From Octopus vulgaris (lineage: Eukaryota), in the NCBI GenBank assembly GCA_951406725.2, contig OX597818.1, positions 106,144,001 to 106,208,000 of the forward strand: a stretch of DNA of 64,000 bases, in the 5' to 3' direction. The notes under the pieces are model-generated. The model did no database searches. It was not told the origin of the DNA and saw only the letters and a program-made list of their open reading frames with translations. Below are positions 4,309 to 60,483 of the stretch, in pieces. Numbering within the stretch: the stretch's first letter is position 1; each line of letters starts with the position of its first letter. A program made the position numbers and the translations under genes.

Positions 4309-6812
4309 GCAGATGATGCAAAATCTCTTCCAGACCTACAGTTACGTGGTGGTGGAATAGTACAGTAGACAAAGCCATTAGAGCAAAGAAACAGGCCTGG
4401 AAAGCCTGGAGTGATGGGGGTAGCAGGGAATTGTACCAGGTAGCCAAAAGGGAGGCTGGGCAGCAGGTACACATAGCCAAGAGCAAAGCGGAAAAGAAGA
4501 AGTTTGCTAATGTCCAGCGACGTGAGGACCAAAGAACTAAGGTATTTCGGATTGCAAGACAGTGTGTGAGAGAAAATTGTGATGTCTCAGGAGAGAAATG
4601 CCCCCACATGGATGATGGTGCACTTGCTTTGAATGTATCTGAAAAGAAAGAAGCTTGGAGAAGCCATTATGAGAGACTGCTGAATATGAGAAAGAATGGG
4701 AGGAGAGCCTGCCGAATGTTGACCCAGTAGAAGGACCAGCTATCCCAATAGACAGTTCCTTTGTAGATAAAGCAATTAAGGGTATGAAGCTAGGAAAAGC
4801 CACCGGCCCATCAGGAATCACTGCCGAGATGCTTAAAACATCTGGTGGTGTGGGCTATGGCTTAGTCACCCGCATTGTAAACCAGGTAGTTCATAATGGA
4901 GTCATACCCAATGACTGGCATAGCAGCACCATAGTCAACTGCTACAAGGGTAAAGGTGATGCTCTAGATAGAAATAACTACAGGGTATTAAACTGTTGGA
5001 TCAGGTGATGAAGGTCACAGAGAGGATCATAGTGCATCTCATTAGGGAGAGACTCTGCTTAGATGAGATGCAGTTCGGTTTTGTGCCAGGTAGAAACACC
5101 ACTGATGCCATATTCCTGGTTCGACAACTGCAGAAGAAATACCTAGCTAAAGATAAACCCCTCTACATAGCTTTCGTGGACTTGGAGAAAGCCTTTGACA
5201 GGGTCCCCCAATACCTTACCTGATGGGTGATGCAGAAACTGGAGATTGACGAATGGTTAATAAAGGCTGTACAGGCCCTATACAGAGAGGCCATCATCAA
5301 GGTTAGGATTGGCAATGAGTATAGTGAAGAATTTTGGGTAGAATTAGGGGTCCACCAAGGTTCAGCCCTCAGTCCCCTTTTATTCATCATGGTCCTCCAG
5401 GCAATAACAGAGGAATTCAAGACGGGTTGCCCCTGGGAGCTCCTCTATGCTGATGATCTGGCCCTCATAGCAGAATCACTACCGCAACTAGGAAAGAAAT
5501 TTTGGATGTGGAAGCTAGGTTTATAATCAAAAGGCCTTAGAGTCAATGTAGCAAAAACCAAAGTTCTAGTAAGTAAGAAGGCAAACACACCACACACCCA
5601 TTCAGGTAGGTGGGCCTGCTCAGTCTGTAGAAAAGGTGTAGGTAAAAACTCCATAAGATGTACCTAGTGTAAGCTATGGACACATAAGAGGTGCAGCAAT
5701 ATCAAAGGAAAATTAACCGAGAAGATAGCTTTCGTGTGTGGCAGATGCACAGGGGCAATAGACACCACTGATACTCAGAAAACAGATTCCATTACACTCC
5801 TGGAGGAGAAACTAGAAGTAGTTGATAGCTTCCGCTAACTAGCTGATCAAGTTAGTAGTGGGGGTGGATGCTCAGAAAGTGTTACCACTAGAATAAGAAT
5901 AGCCTGGGCAAAGTTTAGAAAGCTCCTACCCCTACTGGTGACAAAGAGTAGATTGTACGACTCGTGTGTGCGAACTGCCATGCTTCACGGCAGTGAAACA
6001 TGGGCTGTGACTGCAGAGGACATGCGTAGGCTTGAAAGAAATGAAGCTAGCATGATCCACTGGATGTGTAATGTCAGTGTGCACACACGACAGAGTGTAA
6101 ATGCCCTGAGAGAAATGCTGGACATAAGAAACATTTGATGTGTCGTGCAAGAGAGACATCTGCGCTGTTATGGTCATGTACTACGGATGGATGAGGAGAG
6201 ATGTGTAAAGAAGTACCACTCCCATTCAGTTGAAGGAATCCGGGGTAGAGGTAGACCCTGGAAGACATGGGATGAGGTGGTGAAGCATGACTTTCGAACA
6301 TTGGGCCTCACAGAGGCAATGACGAAATACTGTGACTGTGAAGACCTGACAATTGAAGTGAGTTCATGGCTCGCAGGACAGCCTACTGTGCTTACCTTGG
6401 ATCGTAGGGCGACCTAATGTGCTTGAAGAGACTTATTGAATCAAGTACATCAACATCAAAATAAAAATCAAATGAAAATTGTAGTTGTGATACCCGTGCT
6501 GGTGGCATGTAAAACACACCATCTGAACGTGGTGAGTGCCAGCGCCGCCTTGACTGGCGTCCGTGCTGGTGGAACGTAAAAAGCACCAACCGACCGTGGA
6601 CGTTGCCAGCCTCCTCTGGCCCCTGTCCTGGTGGCACGTAAAAAGCACCCACTACACTCACGGACTGGTTGGCATTAGGAAGGGCATCCAGCTGTAGAAA
6701 CACTGCCAGATCAGACTGGAGCCTGGTGCAGCCTCCTGGCTTCCCAGACCCCAGTCATCCATCCAACCCATGCTAACATGGAAAACAGACGTTAAACAAT
6801 GATGATGATGAT
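4305..6812 (+). mobile_element. RTE-clade LINE, 5'-truncated and decayed (copy A)
   Basis: RT motifs QFGF, AFVDLEKAFDRVP, GVHQGSALSP, LYADD and HGSETW across frameshifted ORFs. 3'UTR hairpin repeats and (GAT)n tail at ~6800. Confidence 0.92.
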
Positions 6813-11753: not shown

Positions 11754-11893
11754 ATGCCTGTTTCAAATAATGATGAACCTTACTACTGTTCAGAACAAAT
11801 TAAAATACCTCTTGACTTGCCTGACATTATGAAAGAATTCACTAAAGCTGCAATTCGTACCCAACCTAAAGATATACTAGGATGGTCAACTTC
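11754..11893 (+). CDS. ROPN1L: Ropporin-1-like protein, coding exon 1 (RIIa dimerisation/docking domain)
   Basis: Acceptor ttttccag at 11739, ATG 11754, MPVSNNDEPYYCSEQIKIPLDLPDIMKEFTKAAIRTQPKDILGWST, donor gtgagt at 11894 (phase 2). Matches the ropporin signature IP.ELPDILKQFTKAAIRTQP. Confidence 0.95.
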
Positions 11894-15106: not shown

Positions 15107-15666
15107 TAAAGGCTACCAAATAACCTATGCTTTTGGCTCAACAACTCTTTTCTAACTAATAAAATAACCCCGGAAACAAGGTCAGGTCACGCAATTTTAA
15201 GGTCATTTTTGGGCAATATTTTGATTTGTTCTAATGTTTCACTTTTGTCTGATGTTTCACATGTGCGTAGAATTCTATTCAGACAAAAATTTATGAAAAT
15301 GTACACATAAATATTGTATTAAAATAAGCCACAACCAAAAATATTTCATTAAAAGACATCCATTTCTCTATATGTTATGAGGAGTCACTTCCTCTTACAT
15401 GCACACTTACACGCACACATACAGACTAAACAAATGTATGCATATGTATTTATGTATATGTATATGAAAGATGTGTGTGTGTTTATGTGAGAGAGAGAGA
15501 GAGAAAGCAAGTGCCACTTATACATACATGCAAAAAAATACATACATGACAACACACACCTTCACTCACTTTCTCTCACACGCACATGCACACACACACA
15601 CATATACACATGTCCATTTCATATACACGTATATACATCTTTCACTTTCCTGTCTCTCCCACTTTC

Positions 15667-16961
15667 TGTTATGTTGCATGTTCGGATGCCTTCTACTCAA
15701 CTCTACTCTTCTCTCTACTCTGCTACTCTCCCGACATCTAGGCTTCCCCCTCTATATCTATGTATTGGGCTAGTCTACTTCATCGTCTGGGGGCTTCAAC
15801 ACAACACCTCCCCTTTTTGAGTTTTTTAAACCTGAATTTATCAATTATATTTCCTTGGTGAGAAACTGGCACATCTTTTTCTCTTAGCATTAATTTCCAT
15901 CATTTCTGTAGGTTTTCTCTTCCTGTTTGACTTATGTGTCAGTTTTGCTTTTGCTTGTGGTTCTGGGACCTCGAACACTTTCGCTTGTGGTTCTGGGACC
16001 TGGAACAAATCATACCATAAATCCATTGGTTTTTCTCACCTCTTGGTTTTTGGTATATCTTTTTTTAAATTTGTTTAAATGCCTTCTGTATTCATATTTT
16101 GGTCCTTTTACTATGTACATGACGTTACCCAGACATCCAGTTATATTTCCTTGTTTCCAGTCCTGTTTTCTGTTACTATATAATTTAAAATACACTTTGT
16201 CACTTATGTTAAAAAAATTCGTTTTTCTTCCCAAATTTTCTATTTTCTGTTTCCTACTTGGCAACCATCTGTCAAAAATAGGATGAATTTTTTTGGAGAA
16301 CATCAAATCTGTGGGTGACCTACACAACTCTGCATTTGGATTCGGTGTTATTCTATATACCTGCAAAAACTTTGTCATATTTGTATCTTCAAAGTTTTCC
16401 CATCTGGTCTTCCTTAAGGCTTTCTTGAATGTGTTGACGAATCTTTCTGCTAATCCATTTGACATAGGATGGTATGGTGGAGTTAACACATGCTTCATCT
16501 GAACCGACTTACAGAATCTCTCGAACTCCTTCGCCATGAATTGTATACCATTATCTGACACGATCATATCTGGCACTCCATAACGAGTGAACAATTCTTC
16601 CAAGAAGTCAATAGTCACACTTGTGGTTGGCCTTGAACTTTTACAAACTTCAGGCCATTTGCAATAGCTATCCACCCCAATGGTATAATGAGAACCATTT
16701 ATTGGTCCTGCAAAATCCACATGTAGTCTACACCATGCCGAATCCGTTTTTGGCCACTGCTGAATCTGTACTGGGGGTACGTTTGCAGACATAGCGCATC
16801 CTCTACACTGTTTTACCAGTCACTCAATTTGCTTGTCCATATTCGGCCAATAAACTTAACTTCTCATAACTTCTGCAGCTGTTGCTGCTGCTGCGCTTGT
16901 TGTTTTACAACTTTTTCAGTAACTCGTTCGGTATTATCCGAAATCTCGTCACCACTGTTAT
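15667..16961 (-). mobile_element. Internally deleted Gypsy LTR retrotransposon (PBS, gag start, integrase, PPT, 3' LTR)
   Basis: 3' LTR 15667-15806 with inverted termini TGTTGTGTTG..CAACATAACA, preceded by PPT AAAAAGGGAGG. Integrase follows. ATAACA-g-TGGTGACGAG (LTR end plus PBS) at 16961-16945. Confidence 0.85.
16010..16792 (-). pseudogene. Gypsy (Mag-like) integrase core, D,D35E intact
   Basis: LHVDFAGP..VSDNG-(35 aa)-NGLAERFV. The upstream Zn-binding half MRS*VYWPNMDKQIE*LVKQCRGC carries two stops. Confidence 0.88.
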
Positions 16962-19900
16962 ATCGCAATGCTACAAAGTGGTTGTGTGTGCTACGAAATC
17001 CTCGTTGCCACTGTTATATCACAATACTACACAGTGGCTGTGTGTGCTACGAATTCCTCGTTGCCACTGTTATATCGCAATGCTACACAGTGGCTGTGTG
17101 TGCTATGAAATCCTCGTTGCCACTGTTATATCTCACTGCTACACAGTGGCTGTGTGTGCTACGAAATCCTCGTTGCCACTGTTATATCTCAATGCTACAC
17201 AGTGGCTGTGTGTGCTACGAAATCCTCTTGCCACTGTTATATCATAATACTACACAGTGGCTGTGTGTGCCACGAAATCCTCGTTGCCACTGTTATATCG
17301 CAATACTACACAGTGGCTGTATGTGCTACGAAATCCTCTTGCCACTGTTATATCATAATACTACACAGTGGCTGTGTGTGCCACGAAATCCTCGTTGCCA
17401 CTGTTATATCTCAATGCTACACAGTGGCTGTGTGTGCCAAGAAATCCTCGTTGCCACTGTTATATCTTAATGCTACACAGTAGCTGTGTGTGCCATGAAA
17501 TCCTCGTTGCCACTGTTATATCTCAATGCTACACAGTGGCTGTGTGTGCCACGAAATCCTCGTTGCCACTGTTATATCACAATACTACTCAGTGGCTATG
17601 TGTGCCACGAAATCCTCGTTGCCACTGTTATAGCTTAATGCTACACAGTGGCTGTGTGTGCCACGAAATCCTCGTTGCCACTGTTATATCACAATACTAC
17701 ACAGTGGCTGTGTGTTCCACGAAATCCTCGATGCCACTGTTATATCGCAATGCTACACAGTGTCTGTGTGTGCCACGAAATCCTCGTTGGCACTTTTATA
17801 TCTTAATGCTACACAGTGGCTGTGTGTGCCACGAAATCCTCGTTGCCACTGTTATATCTTAATGCTACACAGTGTCTGTGTGTGCCACGAAATCCTCGTT
17901 GGCACTTTTATATCGCAATGCTACACAGTGGCTGTGTGTGCCACGATCCTCGTTGCCACTGTTATATCACAATACTACACAGTAGCTATGTGTGCTACGA
18001 AATCCTCGTTGCCACTGTTATATCTTAATGCTATACAGTGGCTGTGTGTGCCACGAAATCCTCGTTGCCACTGTTATATCGCAATGCTACACAGTGGCTG
18101 TGTGTGCCAAGAAATCCTTGTTGCCACTGTTATATCGCAATGCTACACAGTGGCTGTGTGTGCTACGCAATCCTCGTTGCCTCTGTTATATCGCAATGCT
18201 ACACAGTGGCTGTGTGTGCTACGAAATCCTCGTTGCCACTGTTATATCTCAATGTAACTACACAGTGGCTGTGTGTGCCACGAAATCCTCGTTGCCACTG
18301 TTATATCGCAATGCTACACAGTGGCTGTGTGTGCCACGAAATCCTCGTTGCCACTGTTATATCCAATGCTACACAGTGGCTGTGTGTGCCACGAAATCCT
18401 CGTTGCCACTGTTATATCGCAATGCTACACAGTGGCTGTGTGTGCCACGAAATCCTCGTTGCCACTGTTGTGTGCACAATCTCGTTACTGTTATCTAATG
18501 CTACACAGTGGCTGTGTGTGCCACGAAATCCTCGTTGCCACTGTTATATCGCAATGCTACACAGTGGCTGTGTGTGCCACGAAATCCTCGTTGCCACTGT
18601 TATATCTCAATGCTACACAGTGGCTGTGTGTGCTACGAAATCCTCGTTGCCACTGTTATATCGCAATGCTACACAGTGGCTGTGTGTGCCACGAAATCCT
18701 CGTTGCCACTGTTATATCGCAATGCTACACAGTGGCTGTGTGTGCCACGAAATCCTCGTTGTCACTGTTATATCACAATACTACACAGTAGCTATGTGTG
18801 CTACGAAATCCTCGTTGCCACTGTTATATTGCAATGCTACACAGTGGCTGTGTGTGCCACGAAATCCTCGTTATCACTGTTATATCGCAATACTACACAG
18901 TGGCTGTGTGTGCTACAAAATCCTCGTTGCCACTGTTATATCGCAATACTACACAGTGGCTGTGTGTGCCACGAAATCCTCGTTGCCACTGTTATATCGC
19001 AATGCTACACAGTGGCTGTGTGTGCCACGAAATCCTCGTTGCCACTGTTATATCGCAATACTACACAGTGGCTGTGTGTGCCACGAAAGTGGCTGTGTGC
19101 ACACCTCGTTGTCACTGTTATATCGCAATGCTACACAGTGGCTGTGTGTGCCAAGAAATCCTCGTTGCCACTGTTATATTATAATGCTACACAGTAGCTG
19201 TGTGTGCCACGAAATCCTCGTTGCCACTGTTATATCTCAATGCTACACAGTGTCTGTGTGTGCCACGAAATCCTCGTTGCCACTGTTATATCTTAATGCT
19301 ACACAGTGGCTGTGTGTGCCACGAAATCCTCGTTGCCACTGTTATATCACAATACTACACAGTAGCTATGTGTGCCACGAAATCCTCGTTGCCACTGTTA
19401 TATCTTAATGCTACACAGTGTCTGTGTGTGCCACGAAATCCTCGTTGCCACTGTTATATCTTAATGCTACACAGTGTCTGTGTGTGCCACGAAATCCTCG
19501 TTGCCACTGTTATATCTTAATGCTATACAGTGGCTGTGTGTCCCACGAAATCCTCGTTGCCACTGTTATATCTCAATGCTACACAGTGGCTGTGTGTGCC
19601 AAGAAATCCTCGTTGCCACTGTTATATCTTAATGCTACACAGTAGCTGTGTGTGCCACGAAATCCTCGTTACCACTGTTATATCGCAATGCTACACAGTG
19701 GCTGTTTGTGCTACGAAATCCTCGTTGCCACTGTTATATCTCAATGCTACACAGTGGCTGTGTGTGCCACGAAATCCTCGTTGCCACTGTTATATCGCAA
19801 TGCTACACAGTGGCTGTGTGTGCCACAAAATCCTCGTTGCCACTGTTATATCGCAATACTACACAGTGGCCGTGTGTGCTACGAAATCCTCGTTGCCACT

Positions 19901-19991
19901 GTTATATCGCAATGCTACATAGTGGCTGTGTGCTACAAAATCCTTGTTGCCATTGTTATATCGCAATGCTACATAGTGGCTGTGTGTGCTA
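16945..19991. repeat. 56-bp tandem satellite, ~54 units
   Basis: Consensus gccactgttatatcgcaatgctacacagtggctgtgtgtgccacgaaatcctcgtt. It explains all the Cys-rich ORFs at 16829-20011. Confidence 0.98.
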
Positions 19992-20079
19992 GTTCTAGAT
20001 TTAGAACCTAAATCAAAAACAAAGATAAGAAACTGTTTTGCTTCTTATCTAAAGATGTATAATTTTTTATCTCTTTTAG

Positions 20080-20203
20080 ATATTTCGTTGCTCTTTATAA
20101 TGGAGAGGAACCTCCTGTGAAAGAAAGATATGAAATTCCAATGGCTACACAGAAAACTGATTCAGGTTTAACAATAGGTATTTTGAAGATCTTTCATAAA
20201 CAG
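20080..20203 (+). CDS. ROPN1L: Ropporin-1-like, coding exon 2
   Basis: ctcttttag| (S)YFVALYNGEEPPVKERYEIPMATQKTDSGLTIGILKIFHKQ |gtacc. Phase-compatible with exon 1; ATQKTD.GLT motif conserved in ROPN1L. Confidence 0.95.
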
Positions 20204-24573: not shown

Positions 24574-24749
24574 GATATCCAATCTGCTTTAAAGAACATA
24601 TGTGATATCATAACTGATGACCCAGAAGGTGGACCAAGTCGAATACTTTATAATGATTTTGAATTCTTTTTTAATCGTTTTATACAACTGGATGGAGGAA
24701 TTCCAGCAGAAAATGCAAAAGAACTAATTGCATATTTCAAAATGACGGC
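24574..24749 (+). CDS. ROPN1L: Ropporin-1-like, coding exon 4
   Basis: ctctttcag| DIQSALKNICDIITDDPEGGPSRILYNDFEFFFNRFIQLDGGIPAENAKELIAYFKMT |gtaagt (phase 2). TDDPEGGP is diagnostic. Confidence 0.95.
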
Positions 24750-25154
24750 GTAAGTAGTTATTTCCTTTTGAATATATAAAGAATAAAAGAGTATAAGATT
24801 TTAGGATGCATATAGTTTTAATAGCAGTTTAAGATTTTTATTTCTGGCTAATAATATAATGTAGTATAATATTATGTTAATGAAATAACATTTAAGAATT
24901 TAAATACGTTTATCATTCTACTTGCTTTTAAATGATTTACATTGGAAAATTTATTGAATTTCCTTTAAGAAAACTTAACAAAAATTAAAGTAGTTAGTTC
25001 TAGATTTGGAAACAGATGTGAACACATCCTACTCTATCTTAAAAATAAAGAAAAATTGTCCTGACTTATACAGTTCATTGATCACTCATCAAGGAACAAG
25101 TACCCTGTCATGCTTCTGCCCATGAAGAGAACTTATATTTATTTTTGTTGTACA

Positions 25155-32534: not shown

Positions 32535-33915
32535 ATCATCTTCATCATCATCGTTTAACGTCCGCTTTCCATGCTGGCATGGGTCGGACAATTTGACCGA
32601 GGACTGGCAAACCAGATGGCTGCACCAGGGTCCAATCTTGATCTGGCAGAATTTCTACAGCTGGATGCTCTTCCTAATGCCAACCACTCCGAGAGTGTAG
32701 TGGGTGCTTTTATGTGCCACCGGCATGGGGGCCTGTCAGGCAGTACTGGCAACGACCTCACTCAAATCTTTTTACACATGCCCCTGGCACAGGTACCAGT
32801 AAGGCGATACTGGTACAGATCATGCCCTCAAGTGGTGCCTTTCACGTGCCACCAGCACGGAAGCCAGTTAGCTGCTCTGGCACGATCACGCTCGGATGGT
32901 GCTCTTAGCACCGTACTAGCATGGGGCTCAAGTGCCAGTAAGGCGATGCTGGTAATGATCACACTCAAATGGCGCCTTTTATGTACCACTGGCACAGAAA
33001 CTGGTTAGTCACTCTGTCAACAATCACACTCGTATGGTGCTTTTTTTCACCCCGCTAGCACGAATGCCAATCATCGATTTTGATTTTGATTTTGATTTTT
33101 GCTTTCACTCGCCTCAACAGGTCTTCGCAAGCAGTGTTCAATGAAGGGAAGGTACGCATAAGTGGGCTGGTTATGCCCCTGGCATAGGCCACGAGGTTAT
33201 GGTCACATTTGGCTTCCCGGGTCTTCACAATCACAGCATATTTCCAAAAGTCTCGGTCAGTAGTCATTTCCTTGGTGAGGCCTAAAGTTCAAAGGTCGTG
33301 CTTCACCACTTCATCCTGCCCAGGCTATTCTTTTTCTAGCAGCTACACTTTCAGCACATCCTCCCCTCGCTACTGACTTGGTCACCAAGGTAACGGAAGC
33401 TATCAACTACTTCTAGTTTTTCTCTCTGGAATGTGGTGGAAGTTGTTCACTGCGCATTTTCAGTGTTTATTGCTCCTGAGCATCTGGCACATACAAAAAC
33501 TATCTTCCCAGTTAGCCTTCCTTTGATATTACTGCACCTCTTATGTGTCCATAGATTACACTGGGTACATCTTATAGAGTTTCTACTTATGCCTCTACTA
33601 CAGATCGAGCAGGGCCATCTACCTGAAGGGATTTGTGGTTTGTTTGCCTTCCTACTTACTAAGACTTTGGTTTTAGTTAGGTTGACTCTAAGGCCCTTCG
33701 ATTCTAATCCTTGTTTCCATACTTGAAACTTCTCTTCTAGTTCTGATAGTGACTCAGCAATTAGAGCAAGGTCGTCAGCATAGAGGAGCTCCCAGGGGCA
33801 TCCTGTCTTGAATTCCTCTGTTATTGCTTGGCGGGCTATGATAAATAGGAGGGGGCTGAGGACTGAACCTTGGTAGACCCCTACCTCTACCCTGAATTCT
33901 TCAGTGTACTCGTTC
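32535..33915 (-). mobile_element. RTE LINE 3' part, internally deleted (copy D)
   Basis: ORF 33447-33956 with QGSVLSP and LYADD; (ATC)n tail on + at ~32540. Confidence 0.92.
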
Positions 33916-34161
33916 ACATATATATATATGTGTGTGTGTATGTATATATACGTCAAGAATAACTATTGTTTCTTTCAAAAGTGACAAAGGTTTAATAGGA
34001 CTGCAAAAAAGAAGTGCTCAAATAAATGAGGCAAGGATAATTAAACATTGGTTATAGTACAAACATTAAAATGAGTTAACGACTATATACGGTATCAAAC
34101 CACAAACATACATCATATCATCAATAAATATTACCATGGCTTTCATAATATATAAATCAAA

Positions 34162-39359: not shown

Positions 39360-39678
39360 ATGTCACCAAAAAGGGCCACATTAGAGCGGACTGCCCTCAA
39401 AACACAAGCAAGCCAGGAGAAAGCCGAGAATGAGAAGATGGTGGAAGATAATGATGAAACAGACGAGGAAAAAGTATGGAGTGTGGCTGGAAGGAGAAAA
39501 CAGAGGAAGAAGAAGAAGGACAGTCAAAGTGAGCCCCAACCCGTACCCACCCCACCCATACCTTCACAGCCCCACCCTCCCGCTGCAGACACCAAACCCA
39601 CCCATTCCCCACCGACACAAAAACAGAAAAAAGAAGTGCAAACACACACAAATTCACAAAACTCCCCTGCCTTGTGTT
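39360..39678 (+). other. Truncated low-complexity ORF, possibly a LINE ORF1 N-terminus
   Basis: Acidic, WSVAGRRKQRKKKK and Pro-rich segments, cut by the LTR at 39679. Confidence 0.35.
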
Positions 39679-39916
39679 TGTTGTTGTTATATATATATAA
39701 TGTATTGAGTATTAAAGGAAGTAGTGAGTACTTAGTATGAAAGATTAAGAAAATGAGAGAGACTGAAAAAACGTGTTAACGATACGAGATATTTTATTAG
39801 ACTGCCGTTGTTGTACAAGGTATTTGTTGTGGCGGGAAACTTATTGAATGTCCTTGTATCAAGGGAGACAATGGGCAACGTTGATCGTTCATGTTTGTTG
39901 TGATGATTACATAACA
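39679..39916 (-). repeat. 3' LTR (238 bp)
   Basis: Differs from the 5' LTR by 3 substitutions and one TA unit. Confidence 0.96.
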
Positions 39917-40143
39917 TCTTCCTTTTTTTTTATTATCATCATCTGTATCTACAGGGAATAATTATTCGTCGTCCACTTTTTGTGGTTTTATTATTTTGTA
40001 GTGTTGAATTCTGTAGTTGTGCTGTTTTTGTTTTTTCATGCGTGTTTGTTGACTTTGGAAATATATTTTCATAATCTAATTCTTCTGTTATGCGAACGTG
40101 TTCGTTTGTTTTAAGAATATGTTGTCTATTTCGTTTGACTGTA

Positions 40144-40970
40144 TTACCTTCCTCTGTTATTACTAAGTATGAACGAGGTTGCTCTAGTTTTTTTAATTAT
40201 TTTGCCCCTTCTAAACCAATTGTTGTTAAACTTAATTCTAACCGTGTCGTGTGGTTTTAACTCTTGGAGTTCTGTTGTAATGTTTGATTTCTTCTTTTCG
40301 TGAGGCCTGATACCAATTTTGTCGTGTAGTAAGTTTGGGAGATTTGTTCGCAATATTCTATTCATTATTTGATTTGCAGGGGATGGTGCACCATTTTGTA
40401 ATTTAGTCGTGCGTAATGCTAAGAGCGCTAACTGAGGTTCTTCGCCACTCTTGAATGCCTTTTTTAGCGTCTTTTTTATTGTCTGTACATTTCTCTCAAC
40501 CATGCCATTCGCTTGATGATAATGCGGGCTTGTCTTCGTGTGATGAAAATGCCAATTTTTTGCAAATTTTTTGAATTCAGCCGAATTGAATTCTGGACCG
40601 TTGTCACTTACAACTGTTTGCGGAATTCCGAATTTAGCAAAAGTTTCTTTTAATTTTTTGATTACGGTTTTTGACTGGCAATCATTTATTTCGTGTAGAT
40701 CAAAAAATCTTGTTGTATAGTCAATAATTGTGACATACGAATTTCCAGACAGGTGAAATACGTCTGTACCCACTTTGGTCCATGGTGTAGTAGGTATTTC
40801 ATGATTTATTAGTGGTTCGGCTGATTGTTGGTTTTTGTAGTCGATGCAGTATGAGCATGTGTTAATCATGTCTTTGATTTGAGCGTTAATGCCAGGCCAG
40901 TATATACATTCCTTCGCTCTCTCTATGCATTTTTCGATACCCATGTGTCCGGTATGTATTTCCTGTAGAG
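40144..40970 (-). pseudogene. Gypsy integrase (downstream of the hAT insertion)
   Basis: EIHTGHMG..CSYC (HHCC), VGTDVF, VSDNGPEF, NGMVER. Confidence 0.92.
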
Positions 40971-43346
40971 CAGTGATTCCCAAGGTGGGGCGTACGCCCC
41001 ACTGGTGGGGCCTGAGAAAATTCAGGTGGGGCGCGGGGCATAGACGTGGGCTGTGAAAATATTTGTACATGACGAGCGGTCATCGCGGGCACAACCTTAG
41101 ATTCCGTCTTTCCTTTGAAGCCTCCACATCGGAAACTCTCGCACCCCAGCGAGACAAAGAAGATCCCGCACTGAGCAATAAACTTACTATTCAGATAAGC
41201 CAATCAATTGCCTCAATTAGTTTGCCTCAATTAGTCTTTTGTTAGCCCTATTGAAAATGAGCAAACCAAACAAGAAGAAGACTCGTCAATACGCGGTGGA
41301 GTTTTTGAAGTTTGGATTCATTCCTGATGAGCATGATGAGCGTAAACCGTTTTGCTTATTATGTAATCAGACGATGAGCAATGAGTCAATGAAGGCAGGT
41401 AGGCTGGAAGCGCACTTAAAGGTAAGACATCCTAATAATTCTAATTTAGATTTGGAATACTTCAAATCATTGAAAGAAAAATTTAAAAACCGAACAAAAC
41501 TCACTTCACTATTTCATGCAAAACAAGCGCCTCATACTCGTGCCCTTGAAGCCAGCTACGAAATCTCCTTGCTTATAGCAAAACATGGAAAGAATCACAC
41601 TATTGGAGAGCAACTGATTAAACCTGCTATCTCAATATTCTTAAAAACTGTATTACAAAAAGATGATGGAGATATCAGGACTATGCCACTCAGTAATAAC
41701 ACTGTCTCGAACAGAATAGATGAAATGGGGCAAGATGTTGAAAGCCAGCTCATTGAGAAATTAAAATTGCGTAAGTTTTCATTACAAATGGACGAATCCA
41801 CAATCCGGGACAGTGAGGCTCTGTTATTGACTTATGTGAGGTATATTGACCACGAGGAGTTTCAGGAAGAGATGCTGTTCTGCGAATCGTTTGAAACCAC
41901 CACAACTGCAAATGATATTTACATCAAAATCAAACATTATTTGGATGCAAACAAAATACCAAAGGAAAACTTACTGGCATGTGCGGCAGACGGTGCACCT
42001 GCCATGATGGGCAAGAATACGGGATGCTTAAAAATGATGAAGGATGAAAATCCAAACATGTTGACTGTCCATTGTGTAATACACCGAGAAAACTTGGTTG
42101 CCAAGAAATTGTCCCCTGTTCTTAACAAGATTCTTCAAAGTGTGATCAAGTGTGTCAACAGCATTAAAAGAAATTCTAAATCTGAACGTCTTTTTAAGCA
42201 GTTTTGTATAAATCAAAGTGCCGAACATGTTCGATTATTGCTTCATACAGAAGTAAGATGGCTATCAAGTGGAAACTGCTTAAAGAGGTTCATGGAATTA
42301 TTTGATCAGATTAACGACTTTCTTAGTGATAAATGTGAAATGAAATTGCTGTCAACAACGGATGGAAAAGCATTTGTCAGTTATTTGACAGACATATTTG
42401 AGAAACTTGGAAACTTGAATAAACAACTTCAAGGTGCAAACATGACACTTATTGATGCAAAAGCAAAGATTTTTGGATTTATTACAGCTCTCGAATTATG
42501 GAAAAAGAAATTTTCCAAAAGAAATTTCAGTGAACTTTACTGGTTGAGTAAATGTGAAATAACGAATGATGCTGGCATTGTAATTATTGATCATTTAAAT
42601 ATCTTGATAAAGGATTTCAATGACAGATTTTGCGATTTAAAGGCAATGAATTTTCCTTCTTGGTTAACTCAACCGCTTCTGATTAACGTTTCTGATGCTA
42701 CAATCCAATACCAAGAAGAGTTATCAGAATTACAACATGATGAATCAGTGAAGACTTTGTTTAAATTGAAAGGTACAAAGATGTGGCTATATGACGAGGT
42801 TGAAAGAAAATATCCTAAAATTTCTACATCAGCGAGAGAGCTACTGATTCCTTTCCCTTCGTCTTATTTGGTCGAATGTGGTTTTAGTGCAGTTGATAAT
42901 TTGCTCGAAGCCAAGAGAAACCGGCTTGAGATTACAAAACGTGGCGATTTACGACTGAAATTAACAAAGTTGTCTCCTCAAATTAAAAACTTGTGCTGTA
43001 TGCATCAGGCATAGGGTTCTCACTAAATTAGTCGAGCTGACCGTCAAATAATTGAACTGAAAAAACGTGTTTCTTTATTCTTTATAAATTGACATTTTTT
43101 AAAAACATGAGAAATCGTAATAATTTTATCGATTTATTGGGTGTTATGCACTTTCAGTGCCTGTTGTTTCAATTCTCAAACTATTTTTTTGTATTTTGAA
43201 TACAATTTTTTAATTTTTGATTTTTTTTTCAATTGTAAGTAGGCCCACATGTACTTGTAAATGTGAGTGGACATGGGAAAAGGTGGGGCGTAAAAACTTT
43301 TGCTATGAAAAAGTGGGGCGCCGGGAAAAAAGGTTGGGAAACACTG
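40971..43346 (+). mobile_element. hAT/Buster (Charlie-like) DNA transposon, 2376 bp
   Basis: TIRs CAGTGATTCCCAA / TTGGGAAACACTG. Perfect 8-bp TSD CTGTAGAG (40963-40970 and 43347-43354) with the central TA typical of Buster. Confidence 0.97.
41257..43014 (+). CDS. Buster-family hAT transposase (ZBED5/SCAND3-like), 585 aa
   Basis: BED finger CLLC..HLKVRH; catalytic QMDES, ADGA and LVECGFS; HCVIH (CxxH); VRWLS. Uninterrupted ORF. Confidence 0.95.
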   Translation: MSKPNKKKTRQYAVEFLKFGFIPDEHDERKPFCLLCNQTMSNESMKAGRLEAHLKVRHPNNSNLDLEYFKSLKEKFKNRTKLTSLFHAKQAPHTRALEASYEISLLIAKHGKNHTIGEQLIKPAISIFLKTVLQKDDGDIRTMPLSNNTVSNRIDEMGQDVESQLIEKLKLRKFSLQMDESTIRDSEALLLTYVRYIDHEEFQEEMLFCESFETTTTANDIYIKIKHYLDANKIPKENLLACAADGAPAMMGKNTGCLKMMKDENPNMLTVHCVIHRENLVAKKLSPVLNKILQSVIKCVNSIKRNSKSERLFKQFCINQSAEHVRLLLHTEVRWLSSGNCLKRFMELFDQINDFLSDKCEMKLLSTTDGKAFVSYLTDIFEKLGNLNKQLQGANMTLIDAKAKIFGFITALELWKKKFSKRNFSELYWLSKCEITNDAGIVIIDHLNILIKDFNDRFCDLKAMNFPSWLTQPLLINVSDATIQYQEELSELQHDESVKTLFKLKGTKMWLYDEVERKYPKISTSARELLIPFPSSYLVECGFSAVDNLLEAKRNRLEITKRGDLRLKLTKLSPQIKNLCCMHQA

Positions 43347-46266
43347 CTGTAGAGCTTCTCTACGTAATGACTTAGGTACAATTATTCTTGAACCTTTTAG
43401 AACGAGACCATTGACGATTGATATTTCATCACGAACGGAGACGAATGGTTTTATGTTTATTGGTATTTTGTCTTTTGGGGGCCATTCTGTTCTTGTATAT
43501 GTGATGAGTGTCTGTAGTGACGGGTCGTCTGCAGTGGCTTCTTTATACTCGTTTAATTTAGTGTCGGTTATGGGGTAATTTTTTATTACTGCATGTATGT
43601 GCGATTTCATATCTTCGTCTGATACTTCTGGAGTATTTTGCTCAAGGTATGCACGTGATAGGGTATCTGCAACAATTGATTCTTTACCAGATATGTGGTT
43701 TAGGTCAAAACCATATGTTAGTAGAAATCTTTGGATTCTGGGGGGTGGGGGGGCATTTAGTGATCGATTTTTTGAATATTTGCTTCAACGGTTTATGGTC
43801 ATTTTCGATTCTGAAATGAGTTCCGTATATAAACTGATTACATTTCTTGCATGCGAAAACTATACTGAGAGCTTCGCTCTCTATCGGACAGTAGTTTTGT
43901 TCCGCTTGAGTTGTTGCACGAAATACAAACGAAACAGGTAGCCATCTTTCGTTGTGTTTCTGCTCAAGTATCGCTCCGAGCCCATGCTTACTAGCATCTG
44001 TAGTTATTTTTATTGGTAGATCTGGATTATAAAATTGTAGCACTGGTTTTCTGGTAATCATTTCTTTTAGCTTTTTTATTGCTTCGATTTGTGGTTTGTC
44101 GAATGACCATAACGTGTCACTCTGTAGAAGCTGGCGTAATGGTGCTGTAACTTCGGAGTAATTTGATAAAAATTTACATAGGTAATTTGTCATACCTAGG
44201 AATCTTTGTAATTCTTTTTTACTTGTTGGCAGTGTCATGTGAATGATTGCTTGTACTTTGGTTGGATCTTGTTTTATCCCTTCGCTGGTTGATAGATGCC
44301 CAAGGTACGTGATTTGTGATTCATAGAAGATACACTTTGATTTATTTAACTTTAATCCGTGCTTTCGGATTCGATCGAAAACTTGTTGTAGTCTATTTGT
44401 GTGTTCTTCTAAAGTGCTGGACCAGATTATGATGTCATCCTGTGAATTTCTTGCTCCTTCTATGCCCTCTATTATTTTTGCAATTTCTTTTTGGAAAACT
44501 TCACTGGCGCTGTGAATTCCAAAGGGTAGTCGTGTGAAGCGATACCTTCCAAAAGGTGTGTTGAACGTTAACAGATGGGAGCTTTCTTTGTCAACTGGAA
44601 TTTGCCAGTATCCATTAGATGCATCGAGTTTCGAAAAATATTTAGGGTTATGCATTTGTGCAAAAATGTCCTCCGCTGTAGGGAGTTTGAAATGTTGCCT
44701 TTTTATGGCTTTGTTTAGATTCTTGGGGTCTAAACAGAGTCGGAGTTTTCCGTTGGCTTTTTCAACGATGACTAGGGAATTTACCCAGTCTGTAGGTTCA
44801 CTAACAGGTTTTATGATACCTAATTCTGTCATTCTTTTTAATTCTTTGTTGAGTTTTTCTTTTATAGAAAAAGGAACCGATCTTGGTGGATGAATTACAG
44901 GAGTTATTTGTGGACCCACTGTGATATGATGTGTTATTGACAAAGTGCCGATTTCTCCGAAACAGTCTTCATATTTTTCTATTATGTCGTTTGTGTTCGA
45001 CGAGTTTATTTTTGAAATTCTCTGAATTAGGTTCAGATCTTTAGCTGCCTTTGCATCTATAACTGCGTGCGAGTTTGTTTTTGCAACAATGAATTTTATT
45101 TGTTTTGATAATTCTTTGTATTTAATGACTGCTGTGCATTTTCCTAGCACTTTTATAGCTGTGTTATTGTAAGCTGATAATCGAGTTGAGGTTTTTTGCA
45201 GTTGTGGTTTTGGAATTATATTTTTATATTCTCTGAATGGCAGTACGGTTACGTCTGCTCCAGTATCAATTTTGAATGTTACATTCGAGTTGTTCACTTT
45301 TAGTTCGATCGTCCAAATGTCTTTTGGAGTCTTGAACTTTTCGATTTTGTGCACGCGGGAATTATTTGAAGTGATCATTTCGAGTGCATGTGTATCGTCA
45401 TCTGTTTCATCGTCGGTATGTATCTCTACTTTATGTACAAATTTTCTTGATTTGCACATTTTTGCATAGTGTCCTTGTTTCTTGCATTTTTCACATGTCT
45501 TGTGAAATACTGGGCATTTATTTCTTTTGTGATTATAACCACAATAGTGACAGTTAGTGATGTAGTGTTGACTTGGCGCTTGAAACTTCGCGGGCTTTCT
45601 GTCACTTCCGTCTTGTTCGTTTTGATGTCTAGATTGCATATGGCGAGTTATTTGAGTTTTGGCGCCTTTTCTGTCGTGTTGACTATATACCCTCGAGATT
45701 TCGTTATCTCTTGTTTCGGATGTGGCATTTAGCATCCTTGATTGGAGTCGTGTTTGCTCTGCACTCTGACCTGCTTGAATTGTTTTTTGTAAGTCTAAAT
45801 TTGGTTCTCTCAATAATCTTTCTCTTAATCTCATGTCTCTGATTCCACATATCAGAATATCTCTGGTGAGACTGTCTGTGAGGTTGCCGAATTCGCACTG
45901 TTGTGCCTTTTGGCGCAACTCTACCACGTACTCATCGAATTTTTGATGTTCCGCTTGTCCACATGTGAAGAATTTGTGTCTCAGGAAAGTTATGTTTTTC
46001 CTGGGTTCACAATATGCATCGAATTTTTCGATTACTGTTTGAAGGTTCATTTCTTCGTCGGGTGAATCGAAATCCAGAGTGGAATGGATGTCTCGGCCTT
46101 TGGAACCGATGCAAGTTAAAAACATTGACGTTTTTACTTTGTCTGGCTTCATGTCACTTTCTGTTGCTATCAAAAAGAGATTGAATTCTTTTTTCCACTT
46201 TTTCCATGCTGCGGCTAGATTTTCCTGATTAAAGTCTAGGTCTTTTGGATGCGGTAAATTTTCCAT
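43347..46266 (-). pseudogene. Gypsy gag-pol (gag, protease, RT, RNase H)
   Basis: Zn knuckle CEKCKKQGHYAKMC, protease IDTGAD, RT LDASNGYWQ..PFG..SQDDII, RNase H TDASKHGLG..ENDHKPL. Frameshift in the G-run near 43740-43754. Confidence 0.95.
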
Positions 46267-46344
46267 TTCGTCTTTGAAGTATGATTTCAACTTCTTTTTT
46301 CTTTTGGTTTCTGTATTTTGGGTTCTTTTAGTATTCTGACACCA

Positions 46345-46584
46345 TGTTGTTGTTATATATATATATAATGTATTGAGTATTAAAGGAAGTAGTGAGTACT
46401 TAGTATGAAAGATTAAGAAAATGAGAGAGACTGAAAAAACGTGTTAACGATACGAGATACTTTATTAGACTGCCGTTGTTGTACAAGGTATTTGTTGTGG
46501 CGAGAAACTTATTGAATGTCCTTGTATCAAGGGAGACAATGGGCAACGTTGATTGTTCATGTTTGTTGTGATGATTACATAACA
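46345..46584 (-). repeat. 5' LTR (240 bp)
   Basis: Directly followed on the - strand by the PBS. Confidence 0.96.
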
Positions 46585-49607: not shown

Positions 49608-51950
49608 AAGGCAATTAGAAGCATGAAGACAGGGAAAGCCCCAGGCCCATCAGGAATTACTGCAGTGATGCTCAAAATATCCGGCAGTGTCGGCTATAGC
49701 CTAGTCACCCGTATAGTTAACCAGGTGATACATGAAGGAGTCATACCCAATGACTGATGTAGCAGCATAATAGTCAACTGCTACAAAGGTAAAGGTGATG
49801 CCCTAGATATAAATAATTACAGAGGTATCAAGCTGTTAGATCAGGTAATGAAGGTTACAGAGAGGGTCATAGCCCAACTGATTAGGGAGAGAGTCAACTT
49901 GGATGAGATGCAGTTTGGTTTCGTGCCAGGGAAAAGCACCACTGATGCCATATTTCTGGTGAGACAGCTGCAGGAGAAATACTTAGCCAAAGATAAGCCC
50001 CTGTACCTGGCTTTCGTTGACATGGAGAAAGCCTTCGACAGGGTCCCCCGATCCCTTATCTGGTGGTCAATGAGGAAACTGGGGATAGATGAATGGCTGG
50101 TGAGAGCTGTGCAAGCCATGTACAGGGATGCTGTAAATAAGGTAAGGGTTAGCAACGTGTACACTGAAGAATTCAAGGCAGAGGTTGGGGTCCACCAGGG
50201 TTCAGTTCTCAGCCCCCTCCTATTTATCATAAGCGTCCAGGCAATAACGGAGGAATCCAAGACAGGATGCCTCTGGGAGCTCCTCTATGCTGACGACCTT
50301 GCTCTAATTGCTGATTCACTATCAGAACTGGAGGAGAAGTTTCAGGTGTGGAAACAAGAATTAGAATCAAAGGGCCTTAGAGTCAACCTAGCTAAAACCA
50401 AAGTCCTAATAAGTAGGAAGGTAGACAAACCACAAATGCCTTCAGGTAGATGGCTCTGCTCGATCTGTAGAAAAAGTGTAGGTAGAAACTCTATGAGATG
50501 TACCCAGTGTAAGCTATGGACACATAAGAGGTGCAGCAATGTCAAAGGAAGGCTAAATGGGAAGATAGTTTTTGTATGTGGTAGATGATCAGGAGCAATA
50601 AACACTGAAAATCTGCAGAAAACAACTTTCCAGGGGGAAAAACTAGAAGTAGTTGATAGCTTCCATTATCTAGGGGACCAAGTCAGTAGTGGGGGTGGGT
50701 GTGCTGAAAGTGTAACTGCTAGAGTAAGAATAGCCTGGGCAAAGTTCAGGGAGCTCTTACCTCTGCTGGTGACTAAAGGCCTCTCGCTCAGAGTAAAAGG
50801 CAGACTGTATGATGCATGTGTACGAACAGCCGTGCTACATGGCAGTGAAACATGGGCCATGACTGCTGAGGACATGCGTAAGCTCATGAGGAACGAAGCC
50901 AGTATGATCCGATGGATGTGTAATGTCAGTGTACATACTTGACAGAGTGTAAGTACCTTGAGAGAAATGTTGGACCTAAGAAGCATCAGCTGTGGTGTGC
51001 AAGAGAGACGATTGTGCTGGTATGGTCATGTGACGAGAATGGATGAAGATAGGTGTGTGAAAAAGTGCCAAACCCTAGCAGTTGAGGGAACCCGTGGAAG
51101 AGGTAGACTCAGGAAAACCTGGGACGAGGTGGAGAAGCACGACCTTCAAATTTTAGGCCTCACTGAGGCAATGACTAGTGACCGAGACCTTTGGAAATAT
51201 GCTCTGCATGAGAAGACCCGGCAGGACAAGTGAGTCCATCCCAGCCAGCCCACTTATGCATGCCTTTCCTCCCTTGGACACATGAAGACCTGTTGAGGCA
51301 AGCAAAGTCGAAATCGAACCTCATCCGATGACAGTTACCCATGTCAACCTCCCTTCATTGGACACTAAACTCTGCTTGCGAAGACCTGTCGGGGCAAGTG
51401 AAATCGGAATAGAAATTGAACCAATCCTATGACTGGCACCCGGCAGTTGCCAGGGCCGCTGGACTGGCTCTTGTGCAGGTGGCAAGTAAAGAAACACCGT
51501 TTCAACCTTGTGCTTGAGGAGATCCATTGAGTCAAGTACACCAACATCAAAACTCATTGGAAATTGTAGTTGTGATCCCTGTGCTGGTGGCACGTAAAAA
51601 GCACTATCTGAACGTGGCCGATACCAGCGCCGCCTAGACTGGCTTCCGTGCTGGTGGCACATAAAAAGCATCATCTGAACGTGGCCGATGCCAGCGCCGC
51701 CTTGACTGGCTTCCATGCTGGTGGCGCATAAAAAGCACCAATCCGATCGTGGCTGTTGCCAGCCTTACCTGGCATGTAAAAAGCACCCACTACACTCACA
51801 GAGTGGTTGGTGTTAGGAAGGGCATCCAGCTGTAGAAACACTGCCAGATCAGCCTGGAACCTTGGGCAGCCTTCTGGCTTCCCAGATCCCCGGTCGAACC
51901 GTCCAACCCATGCTAGCATGGAGAACGGACATTAAACGATGATGATGATG
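49608..51950 (+). mobile_element. RTE LINE, 5'-truncated (copy E)
   Basis: 246-aa RT ORF 49848-50588, composite 3'UTR, (GAT)n tail. Confidence 0.93.
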
Positions 51951-57269: not shown

Positions 57270-60200
57270 ATGGTATAGCTACAATATCTCTGCCTACACC
57301 CCACAAGCAGGCCTACAAAAATGAATAGAAGGATCCCTTTTATGATTTTCTTCTGCAGGCTACCTCAAAGACAAGTGACAATGATCTCATCTTTGTGGCT
57401 TGAGATTTTAATGGGCATGTCGGACAGTAACCTGGTATCTTCCATGGTGTACATGGAGGCTATGAAGTTTGTATCAGAAATGAAAAGGGAATGAGGCTCC
57501 TGGAGTTCTGTGATGCAAATAACCTATTGATCTGCAACACCAACTTCAGGAAGCCAGCTAGCCACCTGATAACCTATCAATCAGGTGACTTTGTTAGCCA
57601 GATTGATTTCATTCTCACCAGTTTGTGGGATGCATGGTTGCTCTTAAATACAAAGACCCTCCCTGGTGAAGAATGTACCCCCCAACAGACTAGTTATTAG
57701 TGACTTTAGATTTGAGGCCAGAAGGATGCCAAAAAGCAGACCAGTCTGGAAAAGGAGGATTTGGAAGCTTAAGAACCCTTCACATGGTCAGAGATTTAGG
57801 GATATCCTTACCAAGAAATTTGATGATTGGGAGGAGTAGCTACAATACTGTGACATAGAAGGCAACTGGGAATTCCTGTGAGACAGCTTGCTGAGTGCCA
57901 CAGACCAAATCTATGGCTGGTGCAAAGTCCCTTCCAGACCTAGGGTAACATGGTGCTGGAACAACACTGTAGACAGGGCCATTAGAACAAAGAAACAAGC
58001 TTGGAAGGTGTGGAAGAGTGGGGGTAGCAGGAGAATGTATCAGATAGTCAAAAGGGAAGCTAGGAGACAGGTATATATAGCCAAGGGAGTAGCAGAAAAG
58101 AAGTTTTCCAGTGTTCAGCGATGTGAAGACCAAAGAGGTGAAGTATTTCAGATTGCAAGACAGTGTGTGAGAGAAAACCACGATGTCATAGAGAAATGTG
58201 TCCGCATGGATGATGGTGCCCTTGTGTTTAATGATTCTGCAAAGAAAGAAGCTTGGAGATGCCATTATGAAAGACTGCTGAATGTGGAGAATGAATGGGA
58301 GGAGGAGAGTCTGCTAAATGTTGACCCAATTGAGGGACCAGCTACTCAAATTGACAGTACCCTAGTAGATAAAGCAATTAAGGATATGAAGACAGGGAAA
58401 GCGCCTGGCCCATCAGGAATCACTGCTGAGTTGCTTAAAATATCGGGCAGTGTGGGATATGGTCTTGTCACCTGTATCGTAAATCAGGTAGTTCATGAAG
58501 GAGTCATACCCAATGACTGGTGTAGCAGCACAATAGTTAACTGCTACAAGGGTAAAGGTGATGCTCTAGATAGAAATAACAATAAGGGTATCAAATTATT
58601 GGATCAGGTAATGAAAGTTACAGAGAAGGTCATAACCCAACTAATTAGGGAGAGAGTTAGACTAGATGAGATGCAGTTCAGTTTTGTGCCAGGCAGAAGC
58701 ATCACTGATGCTATATTTCTGGTAAGGCAACTGCAGAAGAAATACCTAGCCAAAGATAAACCTCTGTATTTGGCTTTTGTTGACTTGGAGAAAGCCTTTG
58801 ACAGGGTCCCCTGATCCCTTATCTGGTCAATGTGGAAACTAGGGATAGATGAGTGGTTGGTGAGAGCTGTACAAGCCCTGTACAGGGATGCTGTCAGTAA
58901 GGTGATGGTTGGCAACAAGCATAGGGAAGAATTCTGAGTAGAAATAGGGGTTCACCAAGGATCAGTCCTCAGCCCCCTCTTATTCATTATAGTCCTCCAG
59001 GCAATAACAGAGGAATTCAAGACAAGCTGCCCCTGGGAGCTCCTCTATGCTGATGACCTTGCCCTAATTGCTGATTCACTGCAAGAACTAGAGATGAAGT
59101 TTAGGGTGTGGAAGCAAGATATAGAATTGAAGAGCCTTAGGGTCAACCTAGGAAAAACCAAAGCCTTAGTAAGTAGGAAGGCTGTCAACCCACAATCCCC
59201 TTCAGGTAGATGGCCCTGCTTGATCTGTAGAAAAGGCAGGGGTAGAAACTCAATAAGATGTACCTGGTGTAAGCTATGGACACAAGAGAGGTGCAGCAAT
59301 ATCAAAGGAAGGTTAACCGGGAAAATAGTTTTTGTGTGTGGCAGCTGCACAGGGACAATAAACACTGAAGATGTACAGTAAACAGATTCCATCACATGCC
59401 AGAGGGAGAAACTAGAAGTAGTTAATAGCTTCTGCTACCTAGGCATACAAGTCTGTAGTGGGGGTGGTTGCTCTGAGAGAATAGCAGCTAGAATAAGAAT
59501 AGCCTGGGCAAAGTCCAGAGAGCTCCTACCTCTGCTGGCAACTAAGGGCCTCTTGCTCAGGATGAAAGGTAGACTGTATGATGCATGTGTATGAACTGCT
59601 ATGCTATGCGGCAGTCAGACATGGGTCATGACCGCTGAGGACATGCATAGACTTGAGAGAAATGAAGCTAATATGATCCACTGTTTAATTTCAGTGAGCA
59701 CACACGACAGAGTGTAAGCACCCTGAGAGAAAAGTTGAACATAAGAAGCATCAAAAGTGGTGTGCAAGAGAGATGACTGCTGGTATGGTCATGTGTTATG
59801 TATGGATGAGGATAGCTACTTAAGTACCATTCCCTAACTGTGGAAGGAACTTGTGGAAGAGGTAGACCCAGGATGAGGTGGTGAAGCATAACCTTCAAAC
59901 ATTGGGCCTCTCAGAGGCAATGACAGGAGACCGAGACCTTTGGAGATATGCTGAGATTGAGAAGGCCTAGCAACTAAAGTGAGATCACAGCCACACACGT
60001 CCAGCCCAGTTAAGAGTACCCCTGATACATCATGCAATATGATATGCTTGAGAAGACATGTTGAGTCAAGTAAAACCAATATTGTAGCTGTGGCCAGTGC
60101 CCCCTGACTGGCTCCCATGCCAGGCACGTAAAAAGCACTATCCAAACGTGGTCAATATCAGGTCCACCTGACTGGATCCCGTGCCGGTGTCATGTAAAAG

Positions 60201-60483
60201 GCACCATCTGAACGTGACCAATGCCAGTACTCCTTGACTGGCCCCTGTGTCAGTGGCACATAAAAAGCACTATCTGAACATGATTAATGCCAGGCTCGCT
60301 TGACTGGCTCCTGTGCCTGTGGTATGTAAAAAGTACTCACTACACTCTGAGTGGTCGGTGTTAGGAAGGGCATCTGGCTGTAGAAACATTGCCAGATTAG
60401 ATTAGAGCCTGGTGCAGCCACTGGCTCTCCAGACCCCAGTCAAATTGTCCCTTCCATGCCAGTATGGAAAACGGACATTAAAT
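57270..60483 (+). mobile_element. RTE LINE, longest copy (partial EN to 3' end), decayed (copy G)
   Basis: DFNGHVG, LEFCDAN, QIDFIL, 308-aa ORF 57888-58814, LYADD, 3'UTR repeats. Confidence 0.93.

Follow-up and report, generated by a model that had tools for sequence, protein, structure and literature searches.

A tandem array of long terminal repeat end and primer-binding site units in a broken Mag-like Gypsy element of Octopus vulgaris

The 64,000-nucleotide stretch of Octopus vulgaris DNA analyzed here (assembly GCA_951406725.2, contig OX597818.1, positions 106,144,001 to 106,208,000; hereafter the window, whose first letter is position 1) contains the remains of a Gypsy retrotransposon whose internal region adjoins a tandem array of 56-bp units. 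The element occupies the first coding intron of ROPN1L (ropporin-1-like) in antisense orientation, downstream of a first coding exon at about 11754-11892 and ∼90-95 nt, measured from the array, from the next exon at 20080-20177 (plus strand; E = 2e-7 to residues 45-77 of ROPN1L in PDB); a later exon of the gene was found at 24574-24750 (E = 4e-9). The array spans positions 16939 to 19989 on the minus strand and comprises ∼54 units, the first of which is truncated at the host flank. Each unit consists of a leader of ∼27 nt, a 12- to 15-nt end of a long terminal repeat (LTR) terminating in ATAACA, a single G, and a primer-binding site (PBS) for tRNA-Ser. A short inverted repeat (19993-20010) is also present in the host flank, at the truncated left end of the array and about 70-90 nt away from the splice acceptor of ROPN1L.

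An earlier note, made from the sequence alone, had described ∼54 copies of an LTR-end/PBS unit, the last of which ran into the internal region of a Gypsy element, and both observations were borne out. Tandem Repeats Finder (TRF) reported a period of 56 over 16939-19989 (27.4 and 26.4 copies, 90-92% matches), and splitting of the array yielded 55 pieces; because two of these belong to one rearranged unit, the number of units is taken as ∼54. The sequence G-TGGCAACGAGGAT is present in 39 of the 55 motif matches of the array, and most of the remaining matches are off by one or two letters. The last unit, whose LTR-end/G/PBS module occupies 16943-16961 on the minus strand, reads ATAACA-G-TGGTGACGAGAT (16961-16943) and adjoins the internal region, continuing into the stretch toward the rve integrase open reading frame (ORF). 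Units were compared using the 44 regular 56-nt units, with 11 end or odd-length pieces left out; their mean pairwise difference is 6.6%, and blocks of variants recur at distant places within the array. An 8-bp inverted repeat in the unit (GCCACTGT/ACAGTGGC) spans the LTR end and the first letters of the PBS, and the folding of an array dimer surpasses that of 200/200 shuffles (z of -4.5 as DNA and -3.9 as RNA). No Rfam family was found in the array, the one weak chance match being located outside the element. Among the matches listed within the 64-kb window, no further copy of the LTR, the internal region, or the unit was found, and a search of metagenome contigs with the unit pattern returned 0 matches.

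The identification of the PBS motif as complementary to tRNA-Ser(GCU), from which the array departs by one base, likewise agrees with a published sequence. The 13-nt motif with G at its fifth place corresponds to the start of a published tRNA-Ser(GCT) primer from human cells (PMC9072684), and A replaces this G in 44/44 regular units of the array. No tRNA gene was found within the 64-kb window.

The 3′ LTR of the element (15667-15806, minus strand) measures 140 bp, starts with TGTTGTGTTG, ends with CAACATAACA, and possesses a 10-bp terminal inverted repeat with one mismatch. It is plain, carrying no array units. Preceding it is a polypurine tract (PPT; 15807-15818, minus strand) of the same type as in the Mag-like relatives L004, L009, and L029 described below, the PPT together with a 1-nt spacer being common to L004 and L009. 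The integrase remnant (15841-16872, minus strand) includes the end of the zinc-finger region, the rve core, and the C-terminus; the rve match lies in an ORF at 16819-16010 (E = 7e-12), and two stops upstream of 16819 plus a frameshift near 16035 interrupt the remnant. A 30-bp tandem duplication in the C-terminal region of the integrase (15948-16007) is absent from the Octopus sinensis relative P0003 and is skipped by contigs from two of the runs introduced below (X1 and X2). Because homology to the integrase resumes near residue 1050 of a 1375-amino-acid relative, ∼3 kb of gag-pol (∼1000 codons) is missing before the remnant, and the reverse transcriptase (RT) is deleted in this copy. The relative P0003 is deleted differently, with the start of RNase H joined to the integrase core. 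Since different copies show different deletions, the "integrase-only" element of the earlier note is the product of internal deletion rather than a design.

Adjacent to the last array unit, a 26-codon glutamine-rich stretch ending in a stop (16864-16944, minus strand) is a possible remnant of the Gag N-terminus. Three of the four closest full-length relatives listed start with a glutamine-rich segment, with alignment scores at chance level, and a Gag origin received no statistical support in a comparison with 66 long relatives. The stretch is represented by one contig, at single-contig depth, in 3/4 runs. As had been noted before, this copy has no normal 5′ LTR: none was found within the 95 nt that separate the array from the host exon. 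The 4-6 nt of the right flank have no copy in the same 95 nt, so no target-site duplication could be recognized, and the arrangement of two LTRs within a 5-bp target-site duplication is absent. This copy is most likely inert now.

The unit shares just the last 12-15 nt of the 140-bp LTR (10 of the last 12 are identical), and when the whole LTR was compared with the array, 707/1000 shuffles scored equally high. The earlier statement that the LTR end can be aligned to the unit is thus valid for these terminal nucleotides but not for the LTR as a whole. This result, together with the lack of a read across the locus, is what would be expected if an unrelated satellite adjoined the element by chance or if the arrangement were an assembly artefact. 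Such an explanation is hardly credible in view of the 12/13 PBS letters located right behind ATAACA-G and in phase with the internal region, the joining of LTR, PBS, and unit in independent runs, and the structured variants among the units.

To place the element, its integrase was compared with known proteins. The best matches are Octopus sinensis K02A2.6-like proteins (73-85% identity in 3 of 142 matches), which we take to belong to the Mag lineage. The closest full-length polyproteins are 46-49% identical to the integrase remnant, the integrase relatives returned include no full-length octopus member with more than 50% identity, and no integrase relative was confirmed among 66 candidates in viral contigs. 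The element combines a Mag/K02A2.6-like integrase located last in pol, a short TG...CA LTR, a PPT, and a tRNA-Ser PBS. A short LTR, a PPT, and a PBS for tRNA-Ser or tRNA-Leu are traits of the Mag lineage (PMC3286476).

Other copies of the family were analyzed in contigs from 4 of 24 runs (X1, X2, X5, and X7; three studies and three species labels), which were compared with positions 15400-17300 at a likeness of 80%. The loose ends and joints reported below are those listed, namely 24 of 952 loose-end rows, 14 of 40 joints, and 12 of 44 rows of joints with letters. The two ends of the LTR, 15667 and 15806, are matched by loose ends of contigs in 4/4 runs. At the loose end at 15666 in X2, 13 contigs run on with G and the perfect PBS and then with TTTCGT, the letters that follow the PBS in the array. 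Six of the 14 joints connect the LTR with the array (among them 17178→15666, 17227→15666, 17043→15676, 17188→15681, and 17190→15680), the LTR side enters PBS or unit sequence in each of the nine such joints listed with letters, and some LTR copies end in GCGATATAACA, exactly like the array unit. Loose ends behind 17079 correspond to the LTR core (22 contigs in X5 and 13 in X7, agreement 0.72-0.75). Because the joints run from the LTR through G and the PBS into the unit, the unit is the junction of this LTR family, and the array very probably follows a normal 5′ LTR. The proposed derivation of the unit from the LTR-end/PBS junction is thereby upheld, since other LTR copies are followed by G and a perfect PBS, whereas the idea that junction copies stand in place of the 5′ LTR is not: elsewhere they are located behind a normal 140-bp LTR, and the left end has been lost here. 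The absent 5′ LTR is accordingly read as a later loss, because other copies of the family have one. In depth-weighted array-like contigs, the perfect PBS letter at 17006 accounts for 99.9% in X2, 88% in X5, and 98% in X7. The one contig at 16926 in X2, X5, and X7 extends at least 13 letters past the last PBS, which is too short to serve as a bridge between the array and the internal region.

These ends also bear on whether the unit could itself be a transposon. In each unit, a TGT...ACA stretch is followed by G and the PBS, as in a tandem element resembling a terminal-repeat retrotransposon in miniature (TRIM), which would have a 22-bp mini-LTR and a 34-bp inner part and would mobilize itself; bivalve tandem TRIM arrays reach 58 repeats (PMC6934838). 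However, TRIM repeats measure 100-250 bp, no PPT was found in the unit or before its TGT, and no free left end at TGT is present among the loose ends listed, the left ends joining the 140-bp core. The mini-LTR is nearly refuted by these observations, and a TRIM-like origin is extremely improbable.

We favor, with a probability of roughly 0.6, the reading that the locus holds a defective member of a Mag-like Gypsy family whose LTR-end/PBS junction became tandem behind a true 5′ LTR, with inner PBSs that were likely used now and then. That the array is located behind a true 5′ LTR and that this copy is truncated is very probable, whereas priming at the inner PBSs has about an even chance. The array may have originated from one duplication of the LTR end, the PBS, and the leader, perhaps aided by the 8-bp inverted repeat, and would have grown by unequal exchange and slippage, with one PBS mismatch becoming fixed locally. 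Growth by unequal exchange is suggested because variant blocks recur and the mismatch is fixed locally. Priming at the first PBS would generate plain LTRs and keep the array in the leader, and such priming is presumed for this copy, given its unit-free right LTR. If an inner PBS were used, the strong-stop DNA would consist of the LTR core plus units and end in a valid integrase end. Such inner priming would lengthen the LTR, copy units to the right end of the element, and spread them as element ends. In this copy, the left end, the target-site duplication, and ∼3 kb of gag-pol have since been lost.

Two sets of observations are consistent with use of the inner sites. First, loose ends are located before 17012 and 17068, the final A of the unit's ATAACA (23 and 17 contigs in X1, 22 in X5, and 13 in X7). 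Beyond these positions, about 250 letters agree at 0.40-0.45, compared to 0.38-0.43 for random flanks at true LTR ends. In addition, LTR starts lie beside random flank in 75, 61, 96, and 87 contigs of the four runs, versus 26, 24, 25, and 23 for plain LTR ends. The CA ends and the imbalance of LTR starts and ends fit, but do not prove, right ends composed of the LTR core plus units.

The second set comes from a comparison of 48 metagenome relatives, in four or five of which the LTR/PBS junction is visible. The Mag-like element L004 possesses 330-bp LTRs, a 5-bp target-site duplication, and a long pol frame, and in both of its LTRs (850-1179 and 5555-5883) an inner ACA-G-PBS module is located 39 nt upstream of the end. 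Like the array, L004 has an additional LTR-end/G/PBS module with the same 13-nt PBS type and the same PPT type; unlike the array, it has a single extra module, which is fixed in both LTRs, and its integrase is just 36% identical. During reverse transcription of LTR elements, all sequence between R and the PBS in use reaches both ends (PMC10886601). Because the sequence from R to the used PBS is copied in this way, the presence of the inner module in both LTRs is the expected trace of priming at the downstream PBS, and L004 would represent the two-module form of the inner-priming step. L004 itself lies within a mariner-like transposase frame. In two other relatives, an inner ACAACAGTGG or related GTGGGGTT is located about 40 nt before the LTR end (L029, ∼425-470; L042, ∼630-675), possibly an older relic of the same duplication. 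In L009, G, the PBS, and the gag start appear again behind the right LTR (4490-4880), indicating a tandem element or a circular contig. The several priming sites and integration ends proposed in the earlier note thus find indirect support at the level of the family, through the loose ends and L004; in this copy, 44/44 regular units are mismatched at the PBS.

Several results weigh against use of the inner sites or against the arrangement as a whole. The copy's own 3′ LTR is free of units, and with the PBS mismatch at this locus the duplex is predicted at -18.4 kcal/mol rather than -24.4 kcal/mol. The perfect PBS letter makes up just 32% at 17006 in X1, and 75% at 17062. An inner module is merely a weak echo in L029 and is not clear in L009 and L042. 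X2 has no loose end at the unit's CA among its six rows listed. Another LTR subfamily, with a U5 that resembles the unit over a longer stretch, could explain the CA-ended contigs; divergent LTR 3′ ends could likewise cause the imbalance of LTR starts and ends. Among the contigs, no whole element was seen that combines an array-extended LTR with a target-site duplication. No contig of the four runs spans the whole array, so its length depends on the assembly.

The plain 3′ LTR and the variation of LTR ends across the family are also what a passive leader repeat would produce. Under this explanation, the array lies behind the 5′ LTR, the first PBS alone primes, and the CA-ended contigs represent an LTR subfamily with a unit-like U5. 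Mag elements with passive repeats of up to about 3 kb in the 5′ untranslated region (UTR) have been described (PMC3286476), and the predicted hairpin would mask the first 4 nt of every PBS in the array. However, contigs assigned to the array rather than to the LTR at 15667 should hold unit-specific sequence up to the CA, the sole upstream loose end of the array among those listed is the known LTR core, and L004 shows that an inner module is able to reach both LTRs. We consider a purely passive leader unlikely.

Contig depth points to a further possibility. Single contigs have depths of 35-95 (4-12 in X7), and the summed depth in X1, X2, and X5 is 1-7e3 in the integrase bins, 1e4-1e5 on the LTR, and 5e4-2e5 in most array bins. 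As ratios of depth sums, which are not copy numbers, these values amount to about 10-19 LTRs and 80-260 units for each copy of the integrase. Because 80-260 units exceed the 54 present here, some units may sit in free arrays, which also tells against a strictly element-bound array. In its full form, this explanation holds that most copies form a free satellite, in large arrays unlinked to LTRs and similar to maize CRM1TR/CRM4TR, and that the array in the window grew at an old insertion. The local uniformity of one variant and the block duplications, both signs of turnover at the DNA level, would agree with it. Against it stand the repeated LTR-array joints at single-contig depth and the precise CA ends, as well as the fact that summed contig depth does not equal copy number. 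As the main origin of the units, a free satellite is quite improbable; it is compatible with a family whose junction repeats arose behind the 5′ LTR, and both can hold.

A bolder form of the favored reading, that of a repeated junction behind a true 5′ LTR with occasional inner priming, is put forward tentatively, at odds somewhat below even. The LTR would have a variable modular length, every unit serving as a working primer site and integrase end, the PBS used would set the number of units in the LTR, and units would be dispersed as right ends of insertions and as solo LTRs composed of core plus array. If true, the satellite would be dispersed by reverse transcriptase and integrase, and each insertion would record the primer site used. 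The position of the LTR end is normally fixed by the PBS; if a family held tens of PBS/attachment modules in each of many copies, these copies would naturally document which primer sites were chosen. Comparing unit numbers between right ends and left leaders would show the site of priming, and the match between unit and tRNA would show whether reverse transcription preserves the units while DNA-level turnover erodes them. Such a family would provide a direct path by which an LTR element becomes a dispersed satellite, and the array would offer many closely spaced predicted targets for 3′ tRNA-Ser fragments. Should the inner sites never be used, the array would amount to an ordinary, if large, leader repeat within a dead element.

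The window contains other mobile elements. A second, unrelated young Gypsy element (39677-46584, minus strand) possesses a different PBS, frames for gag-RT-RNase H and integrase, and LTRs of about 240 bp that differ by three mismatches and a small end indel; its flanks are alike in 8/9 letters, which is longer than the usual Gypsy target-site duplication. Its different LTR and PBS rule it out as the parent of the array. Nested in it is a DNA transposon (40971-43346) with terminal inverted repeats and an 8-bp target-site duplication, whose 597-amino-acid frame has no Pfam match at 1e-3 and which, from its ends, we take to be hAT-like. Fragments of non-LTR reverse transcriptases followed by a PHD/C1-like finger are present at 33447-33962 and 49758-50588, and short tandem repeats of 66-67 bp, belonging to one abundant interspersed family, were found at 6493-6649, 51581-51753, and 60103-60337.

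A literature search of limited coverage found no report of arrays composed of LTR-end/PBS units, nor any of this octopus repeat. LTR/UTR-derived arrays and repeats in the 5′ UTR of Mag elements are published, and Mag clades have been reported in molluscs (PMC6238403). In Culex, Mag-lineage Gypsy elements with tandem repeats in the 5′ UTR (cqgypsy_24, _25, and _66) and 38 repeat-filled nonautonomous LTR families have been described (Marsano et al. 2012, PMC3286476). The Culex Mag elements share with the octopus element the lineage, a tRNA-Ser PBS, short LTRs (about 120-300 bp), and repeats behind the 5′ LTR, and the repeat region of cqgypsy_24 is, like the octopus array, about 3 kb. In the text available, the Culex repeats are not said to include an LTR end or PBS, whereas every octopus unit is the junction, and the repeats of the nonautonomous families begin well inside the element.

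In the maize tandem repeats CRM1TR and CRM4TR, the monomer extends across the junction between the LTR and the UTR of the element from which it derives (Sharma et al. 2013, PMC3648361). The octopus monomer likewise comes from its parent's LTR-UTR junction, and local homogenization is common to both. The maize repeats differ in their 0.7-1.4-kb monomers, their restriction to one or two pericentromeric loci, and their limited movement, and neither "PBS" nor "primer binding" was found in the text of that paper available (PMC3648361). The octopus array, in contrast, has a minimal 56-bp unit, many sites, and precise CA ends; the joints with the LTR and the variety of flanks suggest that many of its sites are element-linked, and the depth excess could reflect free arrays as well. 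Two other systems are more distant. Partial PBS duplication in MAL-type isolates of HIV-1 (PMC3185550) is a similar case of such a duplication tolerated in a replicating retroelement, although it involves one 23-nt partial copy without an LTR end and no array. Tandem TRIM arrays (biv-TRIM, PMC6934838; Helenus/Ajax, PMC10886601) resemble the octopus array as head-to-tail parts of LTR elements in molluscs, but their unit includes a complete terminal repeat along with an inner domain and a PPT. The octopus unit contains 12-15 nt of LTR and neither a 100-250-bp terminal repeat nor a PPT, and it belongs to an integrase-coding family, with integrase sequence in the element itself. By analogy, then, the octopus array is a system that would work like the Mag 5′ UTR repeats of Culex combined with maize CRM1TR/CRM4TR. 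What sets it apart is the scale of the array and the apparently precise integration ends inside it.

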